Shown one piece after another: positions 60,301 to 63,300 of a stretch of 64,000 nucleotides of DNA. Source of the stretch: Escherichia coli (GTDB lineage: Bacteria; Pseudomonadota; Gammaproteobacteria; Enterobacterales; Enterobacteriaceae). How positions within the stretch are numbered: the stretch's first letter is position 1; each line of letters starts with the position of its first letter. The position numbers were made by a program. Where the stretch lies: assembly GCF_030384885.1 (NCBI RefSeq), contig NZ_CP128613.1; one strand, written 5' to 3'.

Positions 60301-63300
60301 GTTCTGGTGTTTGCAGCAGTGACTGGGCGTTAATGGTGGCGTTGAGCGCCTGCTTATCGACGGAAGGCGTACCACCAAGTTGCCCAACCGCAATCTGCGC
60401 GTTCTGTGACTCAATGGCATCAGTGACATCTTTAGCCGTCATCTGAAAACTGTTGAGTTTCGCCGGGTCCAGCCAGATACGCATTGAATATTGCGAACCA
60501 TAGGCATCGATATCCCCGACGCCATTCACGCGGCTTAATGGGTCCTGAATATTACTGGCAACGTAATCGGCAATATCCTGCTTATCCATCGAACCATCGG
60601 TAGAGACGAAGGCAATGGTAAGAATGTTGGTATCGCCGGTTTTACGCACCGTCACGCCCTGATTTTGCACCGCCTGCGGCAACTTTCGCATGGCTGATTG
60701 CAGCTGGTTTTGTACTTGCTGCACTGCTTCGTCCGGATCGGTGCCCGCTTTAAAACTTAAGGTGACAGATGCCTGACCGGTGCCACTGCTTTGAGACGAC
60801 ATATACATGAGATTATCGAGGCCGGTCATATTTTGCTCGATAACCTGGGTCACGGTGTTTTCCAGCGTCTGAGCCGATGCGCCGGGATAGTTAGCGGTTA
60901 CTCGCACATTAGGCGGTGCAAGATCCGGGTATTGTTCAACGGGCAATGAGAAAATCGCCAGGGTTCCTGTCAGACACAACAGGATTGCCAGCACCCAAGC
61001 AAAAATGGGGCGATCAATAAAGAAATTCGCCATTAAAAGAGGACCTCGTGTTTCTGCGTATTGTTGTTGGCATGCCTTGCTTCACTGTAGCGGCAAGGTA
61101 CGGACCAATCGTGGAGAAAAAAAGGAGTTAATGTAAATTATCATGCCCTTTTATACTGAACCTTAAGTGCAAGTATTCTTTGGTCAGTAGGTGGCATTAC
61201 ATTAGCTGGCTTTCCTCACCCTCCGCAGAGCGAAAGCTAATACTCACTAACGTGCCGCCACCGGAAGGTTGTGAAAAAGTCAGCGTTCCACCCAGTCGTT
61301 CCGCGCGTTCGCGCATAATATTCAGACCATAGTGACCTTCGGGTTCTTTCGGTTCTCCGATGCCAATCCCGTTATCACGGATATAGACTGTGTGATTGCC
61401 GTCCGGTGCGGTGACGCAGCTGACGGCAATTTCGCTGGCGTTGGCGTGCTTCATCGCATTGAGTACCGCTTCGCGAATAATTTGCAACAAATGCACCTGC
61501 ATTTGCGCATCCAGCGCCAGTGTTGGCAGACGGCAGTCGAGAGTCAGTTTTGCGCTGGTTTGATTTTGTAACGTATCCAGCATTTCCCGCAACGCGGAGG
61601 GAAGATCCGCTTGCTGCAGCGTCAGGCGGAACGTGGTCAACAGCTCGCGTAACTGTCGATAAGCATCATTCAATGCCTGGGAGAAATCGGCCATGATATT
61701 TTGTGCGGTGGCGTTATCTTCCGGTATCGAACGTTTAAGTAACGTCAACTGGATACGTAAGTAAGAAAGCACCTGGGCCAGCGAATCATGTAATTCCCGT
61801 GCGATGGTGGCACGTTCTTCCATCAACAGTAACTGCTGAAAATGCTTCTGCGCCTGATTAAAGTACAAACCGCGCCCCAGCATCGACGAAACGCTGTTAA
61901 GCAGCGGTTCTGATGATGACACGTGGCTATTTTGCCAGTGCAGTTCGCCGTAAACCGTCTCTTGCATCGTTACCGGTAAAATCTGCATCGGCAATTCGGG
62001 GTTTGGTTTCCCTTCACTAATCCGCCAGTTTTCACCGACATTCAACTCCAGATATTCAGCCGCTTCATTGTCGCGAACAATCTGCAAAATATGGCGGAAA
62101 CAATGCACATCTATCTGGCTGGTGTTCAGCGCCTGCGAACACTGATACAACACCTCCAGGCGACGCTTGGCCTCGTGGAGATCACGGGTTTTTTCTTCTA
62201 CTGACGCTTCCAGCGAACGATACAATTTATGCAGCTCGCTCGACATCTGGTTAAAGGTTTTGGCCAACAGTCCCAGCTCATTGGGCAGACTGGTATCCAG
62301 CGGCGGCGAATCGAACTGGCCGTGTTCAATACGCTGACTGGCGGTAACCAGCTGATTCAGCGGGGCAACCACCTGATGGCGTATGCGGCGCAGAGTAAAA
62401 AAGACCAGCGTGAAAATACCGATGCCGCCAGCCAGGGAGATCGCCACCACCAGCAGCATTTTGCGTTCGGCGTAGTGCTGTAAAGCCAGCACGAACAGGT
62501 CTATCTGATTAACATAATTATTAATATTGGCCTGATACCACGGCAAATCGCCCTTGCTGAGCCGATTATTCATCTCCAGCCAGTTGGCATTCAGATGCGC
62601 ATAGCGGGTTTTTACTGCCTCTGGCACATACCAGACGTTGAGATTGGTTAACACCGGTGAGTGCAGTGCCTGTTGGAACAGCTGGCGATGCGCATTGAGT
62701 TGTGGACTGCCGCTTTGCAAGTCGTAGCCCAGGCGGTAACTCTGCATACGCAACGATCCGGCAATATTGATAGCCTCAGCGTCGCGCAAACTGCTCGCCA
62801 GAGTTAGCAGTGCGATACCCGTGGAAAGAATCGACAGCAGCACAATGTAAAAAAAGGCCCGGGCCAAACTGGCCGAGACGGGGCGTTTAACAATCACACG
62901 CGTCTTCTCCACATAAAATCATTAATGTTCCAGTTTGCTGAAATGCAATTTAATCAGTGATGGGATTATTTGATCTGCCACAGTTTATAGCGAAATAGTG
63001 ACTTATTCTGGGCACATGAACATTGCCGATTCCCCTGTAAGTCGGGTAATAACAACACTCATATAAAGAATAAGGTTTTTACAACCAAAAAAGAAGGTCG
63101 TTATGAATCGTTTTATTATGGCCAACAGTCAGCAATGTCTGGGTTGTCATGCTTGTGAAATCGCCTGTGTCATGGCTCACAATGATGAGCAACATGTCCT
63201 GAGCCAACACCATTTTCATCCCCGAATTACGGTTATCAAACATCAGCAGCAACGTAGTGCGGTGACCTGTCACCATTGCGAAGATGCGCCCTGCGCCCGT

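Follow-up and report, generated by a model that had tools for sequence, protein, structure and literature searches.

The 163 nt spacer between narQ and acrD in the Escherichia coli DNA analysed here (a stretch of 64,000 nt, referred to as the window) contains an 18 bp BaeR box that very probably corresponds, as an orthologue, to the BaeR operator known for the acrD promoter, at which we propose activation through two repeats. The acrD operator is already known, and what the window presents is a minor E. coli allele of it with one substitution at an unconstrained position. The efflux pump AcrD, which acts on aminoglycosides and bile salts, thus appears to remain under its standard BaeSR wiring in a diverged E. 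coli lineage, a finding of little import beyond annotation.

The BaeR box and its match to the consensus

The original prediction took positions 61034-61196 as the acrD upstream region, and this span coincides exactly with the complete narQ-acrD intergenic spacer, which is equally long in K-12. Nucleotide identity with K-12 is 96.0% for acrD and 94.9% for narQ. The relevant features are as follows.

57920..61033, minus strand: acrD coding sequence (1037 aa), the regulated gene, from its ORF and the RefSeq annotation of the identical locus
61197..62897, minus strand: narQ coding sequence, the upstream neighbour of acrD, annotated as narQ of 1701 nt in NZ_CP027579.1
61044..61047, minus strand: Shine-Dalgarno sequence GAGG of acrD, conserved, 10 nt upstream of the ATG
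61121..61104 (-88..-71 relative to the acrD ATG), minus strand: 18 bp BaeR box TTTTTCTCCACGATTGGT, from its consensus match and K-12 orthology
61109..61117, minus strand: proximal core repeat TCTCCACGA, which fits the TCTNCANAA / CTNCA core

The box TTTTTCTCCACGATTGGT lies on the same strand as acrD, 70 nt upstream of its ATG. The 18 bp BaeR consensus TTTTTCTCCATDATTGGC is attributed to Nishino et al. (2005) and is quoted alike in three later papers (PMC3915751, PMC3799227, PMC11644481); the box agrees with it at 16 of 18 positions, with C in place of T at position 11 and T in place of C at position 18, so that the 16 of 18 claimed at the outset was correct on recounting. It is the only site in the 64 kb window within three mismatches of the consensus, the next-best sites having four, and base composition leads one to expect about 0.006 sites with two or fewer mismatches per window on both strands, or about 7e-6 on the acrD strand of the narQ-acrD spacer. 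A weight matrix built from three sites, which is partly circular through its inclusion of the K-12 acrD site, served only to rank sites within the window. The proximal repeat TCTCCACGA agrees with the BaeR core motif TCTNCANAA / CTNCA (Yamamoto 2008, as quoted in PMC3799227) at 6 of the 7 specified positions, and contains the core element as CTCCA.

Orthology with K-12 and distribution of the allele

Alignment with the K-12 acrD promoter, the comparison on which the original prediction had staked its own rejection, revealed no divergence of the operator. The spacer aligns with that of MG1655 without gaps, and the box falls on the K-12 acrD site TTTTTCTCCACGATTGGC, at the orthologous position, in a spacer of the same 163 nt, at the same 70 nt from the ATG and with the same putative -10 hexamer; 17 of the 18 box positions are shared. 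Within the box only position 18 is changed, from C to T, and the base after the box differs as well, K-12 having C at position 18 with T next to it, compared with T and then C in the window (GGCT to GGTC at 61105..61102). Starting 34 nt past the narQ stop codon, the window is identical to K-12 throughout as far as box position 17, and the remaining spacer substitutions comprise four downstream of the -10 hexamer and one near the narQ stop.

A 501 nt query around the spacer matches narQ/acrD in 5,424 of 5,426 complete E. coli genomes. The window allele, represented by a 66-mer that spans the box, occurs in 18 of the 5,426, and the K-12 allele of the same 66-mer is found exactly in at least 5,325. 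A megablast search with the window 66-mer listed 18 genomes and was uninformative on the others, which is why a search in the other direction was made with the K-12 66-mer; the likely cause is that the T-run was masked as low-complexity sequence, leaving K-12-type alleles without a 28 nt seed. The genomes with the window allele derive from human, bovine, goat, dog, pig and food sources. Identity of at least 99% over the 501 nt is likewise confined to 18 of the 5,426 complete genomes, the rest lying in a band of 90-95%. The sequence of the acrD-spacer-narQ segment (57920..62897) suggests that the segment either belongs to an E. coli lineage that branched off deeply or was introgressed.

Constraint on the operator across species

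A scan of one genome per species yielded 80 AcrD orthologues (82-99% amino acid identity) across the Enterobacteriaceae and one Erwinia. We aligned 81 acrD upstream regions, and scored spacing and pentamer counts on 77 sequences. The box occupies the same aligned position in all 81 upstream regions, mostly 68-74 nt from the ATG. A mismatch scan chose off-register sites in four of them (L038, L042, L068 and L081), and the alignment revealed the orthologous box in L038, L068 and L081. The exact sequence TCTCCACG is present in 74 of the 81 orthologous promoters, with C-83, C-80, A-79 and G-77 invariant, and an 18-mer identical to that of the window is found in Kosakonia species.

Constraint is unevenly spread along the box. 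The frequency of the majority base over the 81 upstream regions is 0.95 at box positions 3-16 and 0.51 at positions 17-18; over the longer block from -111 to -73 it is 0.90, compared with 0.50 elsewhere in the spacer. At position 18, 49 promoters have C, 20 have T, nine have A and three have G, and position 17 varies just as freely. The C to T change of the window therefore lies at a freely varying position, and to judge from this alignment it is most likely neutral. The footprint also indicates that the constrained positions of the BaeR consensus are 3-16, and not 1-2 or 17-18, which could guide the construction of a better BaeR matrix.

In three upstream regions the distance from box to ATG is larger than the usual 70 nt or so: 198 nt in Kosakonia oryziphila (L055), 91 nt in Phytobacter (L061) and 139 nt in Erwinia mallotivora (L080), which points to insertions between promoter and start codon and hence to longer leaders. 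Another upstream region comes from an assembly labelled Chryseobacterium sp. 18061 (CACSKA010000009.1), which encodes an acrD of enterobacterial type (88% amino acid identity), and 71 nt upstream of this gene stands the same BaeR box. As the label names a genus of the Bacteroidota, this is probably a contaminated or mislabelled assembly.

An extended block and a putative promoter

Constraint extends beyond the 18-mer, over a 39 bp block (61144..61106, ATGATAATTTACAyTAtCTCCTTwwTTTCTCCACGwTTG) of which the box makes up the 3' part, and beyond the box we distinguish the following elements.

61120..61128, minus strand: distal direct repeat ACTCCTTTT, with TCTCCTTww as its consensus in the family, located 11 bp upstream of the proximal core
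61132..61144, minus strand: conserved upstream element ATGATAATTTACA, which contains the lone GTAAA (plus strand, 61133..61137)
61084..61089 (-56..-51), minus strand: putative -10 hexamer TACAGT, from cross-species conservation

The pentamer located 11 nt upstream of the core is TCTCC in 57, TCTTC in 14 and ACTCC in three of the 77 scored sequences. Further upstream, TTTACA, which reads as the GTAAA half-site on the other strand, is conserved at 99-100% in the 81 upstream regions. On the other side of the box, the pattern TAnAGT is preserved in the same alignment (T-56 100%, A-55 99%, A-53 99%, T-51 100%), and the gap between the core and this putative -10 hexamer is constant at 19 nt in 75 of 77 sequences. 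No -35 hexamer is recognizable upstream of TACAGT, and a scan of 60950..61300 for sigma-70 promoters and terminators found neither a consensus promoter nor a terminator-like structure for narQ; the lack of such a promoter in the spacer agrees with a need for an activator. The putative -10 hexamer is flanked by an inverted repeat, CCTTGC...GCAAGG (61093..61098 and 61075..61080, minus strand, arms of 6 bp with a 12 nt gap), which does not constitute a terminator since no T-run follows it; in K-12 the right arm is GCAAGT, with the loss of one pair, and by eye its conservation in other genera is inconsistent. We also considered an RNA element as an explanation of the conserved block, and dropped this reading because the conserved columns are invariant and show no compensatory changes; an Rfam scan of 60900..61350 at E<=1 gave no match.

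The 11 bp repeat, the fixed distance to the -10 hexamer, the lack of a -35 element and the comparable architecture at mdtA and spy together fit a tandem BaeR site that would cover the -35 region of a promoter that is weak and depends on an activator, in a register that we infer. BaeR would bind the two direct repeats spaced by 11 bp, (A/T)CTCC at 61128..61120 and TCTCCACGA at 61117..61109, in the place of a -35 element and upstream of the conserved -10 hexamer TACAGT (61089..61084), and from there it could recruit RNA polymerase to an otherwise weak promoter. Binding of this kind is predicted for the present strain, along with a class II type of activation and a putative transcription start near 61077-61078, some 44 nt upstream of the ATG, and the BaeSR envelope-stress signals, for which the literature gives indole, tungstate, Cu/Zn and flavonoids, would then be predicted to induce acrD.

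Comparison with known BaeR sites and analogous operators

The K-12 boxes of mdtA (TTTTTCTCCCTTATTGGC) and spy (TTTTTCTCCATAATTGGC) share the frame TTTTTCTCC...ATTGG with the acrD box of the window, and differ from it at box positions 10-12 (CAC G in the latter). All three have an extra CTCC repeat one or two helical turns upstream, at 10 bp in K-12 mdtA, 22 bp in K-12 spy and 11 bp in the window, whereas the distance from box to ATG varies, being 53 nt for mdtA, 138 nt for spy and 70 nt here. The spy promoter differs further: downstream of the BaeR box it has a true tandem CpxR repeat (GTAAA-N5-GAAAG), which acrD lacks.

OmpR-family direct-repeat operators such as the pho box of PhoB take the place of the -35 element. 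The acrD site resembles the pho box in its direct repeats of about 11 bp, in their predicted location over the -35 region, in the presence of a putative -10 without a -35 element and in the use of a winged-helix response regulator; the sequence and the regulator are different, and for acrD the binding stoichiometry and the transcription start are predicted ones.

The acrD promoter of Erwinia amylovora offers an experimental parallel, being that of the same gene under the same regulator: BaeR shifts its upstream DNA in an EMSA (electrophoretic mobility shift assay), and BaeR overexpression raises acrD expression by a modest 3.8-fold (PMC3915751). Its published motif includes TTCTTCACGATT, one change away from the family core TTCTCCACGATT, and unlike the site in the window it lies much farther from the ATG, at -166..-148. 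Judged from the strings only, the TTCTTCACGATT within the published E. amylovora box TTCTTCACGATTACTGGC (PMC3915751) is offset by 3 nt from the alignment to the consensus given in that paper, the orthologous register beginning 3 nt further upstream.

CpxR and the conserved upstream element

There is one GTAAA in the spacer, on the plus strand at 61133..61137, and it had been held from the start that a single half-site is insufficient for a CpxR call. That caution was justified, because the spacer has no tandem CpxR box above background: its best matches to GTAAA-N5-GTAAA have 3-4 mismatches of 10, which is the background level. The tandem pattern at three or fewer mismatches was discarded as evidence, being non-specific (519 matches found window-wide compared with 413 expected).

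It is conceivable, if rather unlikely, that the 39 bp block (61144..61106) is a hetero-cooperative operator in which the two BaeR repeats act together with the adjoining invariant ATAATTTACA and its CpxR-type GTAAA, a single CpxR protomer on this half-site (61133..61137) boosting BaeR-dependent activation. The near-complete conservation of TTTACA across 81 species and its position directly next to the distal BaeR repeat favour such an arrangement, and the induction of acrD and mdtA by CpxR has been described as strictly BaeR-dependent, with CpxR enhancing the effect of BaeR (PMC2731931, PMC4107485, PMC9600279). In a Salmonella study, moreover, GTAAA-agcgc-ATGAT was predicted as a site for CpxR, at 106 bp upstream of the acrD start (PMC4846824), and this is near the position of the conserved half-site here. 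However, a second half-site is missing at the canonical N5 spacing; CpxR overexpression in Erwinia raised acrD 1.5-fold, below the 2-fold criterion of that paper, and Erwinia CpxR did not bind the mdtABC promoter (PMC4107485); and CpxR overexpression elsewhere was without effect on acrD (PMC2731931). UP-like, A/T-rich DNA or an extended contact of BaeR could account for TTTACA equally well. An operator shared by two OmpR-family regulators would, if real, explain why the effect of CpxR on acrD depends strictly on BaeR, and the block with its second CTCC and TTTACA could guide tests of co-regulation by BaeR and CpxR.

Evidence for and against BaeR control of acrD

Along with K-12 orthology and cross-species constraint, the listing of acrD in the literature as a BaeR site supports the identification of this sequence as the acrD BaeR box that the original prediction proposed. 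Four BaeR binding sites have been reported, of which acrD is one (PMC2731931), and the gene has been placed in the core BaeSR regulon (PMC4107485, PMC3160322). An E. coli acrD promoter-lux fusion responded to indole only when baeS and baeR were supplied, and the BaeS H250A substitution lowered the acrD promoter's response only in part (PMC4780735); this partial effect indicates that other inputs to the promoter exist.

Other reports point in a different direction. ChIP-exo of K-12 in 5% ethanol showed no BaeR peak upstream of acrD, leading its authors to call the regulation indirect, and acrD is absent from the BaeR iModulon (PMC7657598); in a microarray with BaeR overexpression, acrD was not among the significantly induced genes (PMC2731931). 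From the missing peak and the lack of microarray induction, BaeR occupancy at acrD appears to be weaker or more dependent on conditions than at spy and mdtA. These reports also favour a stronger reading, in which the block serves mainly some other factor, or BaeR regulates acrD indirectly in vivo, with the box a weak or conditional site, as does the extension of the block to 23 nt upstream of the 18-mer, with TTTACA outside the BaeR consensus. We regard it as improbable: the most invariant columns are exactly those of the BaeR core CTCCA(C)G; the same box is found at mdtA and spy, where ChIP-exo does detect BaeR (PMC7657598); the Erwinia acrD promoter is positive in the EMSA with BaeR (PMC3915751) and the acrD-lux response requires baeS and baeR (PMC4780735); and the ChIP-exo experiment used one condition only (PMC7657598).

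A further reading concerns the allele itself, and holds that the change from GGCT to GGTC (61105..61102) weakens the operator and makes acrD less responsive to BaeR than in typical E. coli. The match to the consensus does fall from 17/18 in K-12 to 16/18, all three K-12 sites (spy, mdtA and acrD) end in GGC, and the K-12 66-mer vastly outnumbers that of the window (at least 5,325 compared with 18 of 5,426 genomes). Against this stand the freedom of positions 17 and 18 across the 81 promoters and the occurrence of the same 18-mer in Kosakonia, and the uniformity within E. coli reflects the low diversity of the species and a clonal origin of the allele, to which the 4-5% divergence of acrD and narQ here attests; we therefore think it very improbable that the operator is impaired. 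Chance resemblance without function, for which nothing speaks beyond T-rich motifs being general in intergenic DNA, can be dismissed in view of the 0.006 such sites expected per window, orthology to the described K-12 site, and a constant position in 81 species set in a spacer with a majority-base frequency of 0.50.

The BaeSR system in a proxy genome

For the preferred reading, that the box is the orthologous acrD operator under BaeR control, the state of the regulator matters as well. The baeSR genes lie outside the window, and we used NZ_CP027579.1, which is 100% identical over a 501 nt query across the junction, as a proxy. It contains an intact mdtABCD-baeSR locus, its BaeR is identical to that of K-12 at 238 of 240 residues, and its mdtA box is the same as the K-12 mdtA box; induction of acrD by BaeSR in the present strain would be consistent with this gene content. 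The region upstream of mdtA in the proxy genome (L085, 18835..19547) has features of its own: three Ibs genes, annotated as type I toxins, lie between mdtA and yegL, and there is a pphC pseudogene with an internal stop codon; in the K-12 counterpart, the 800 bp stretch inspected contains only ibsB/sibB.
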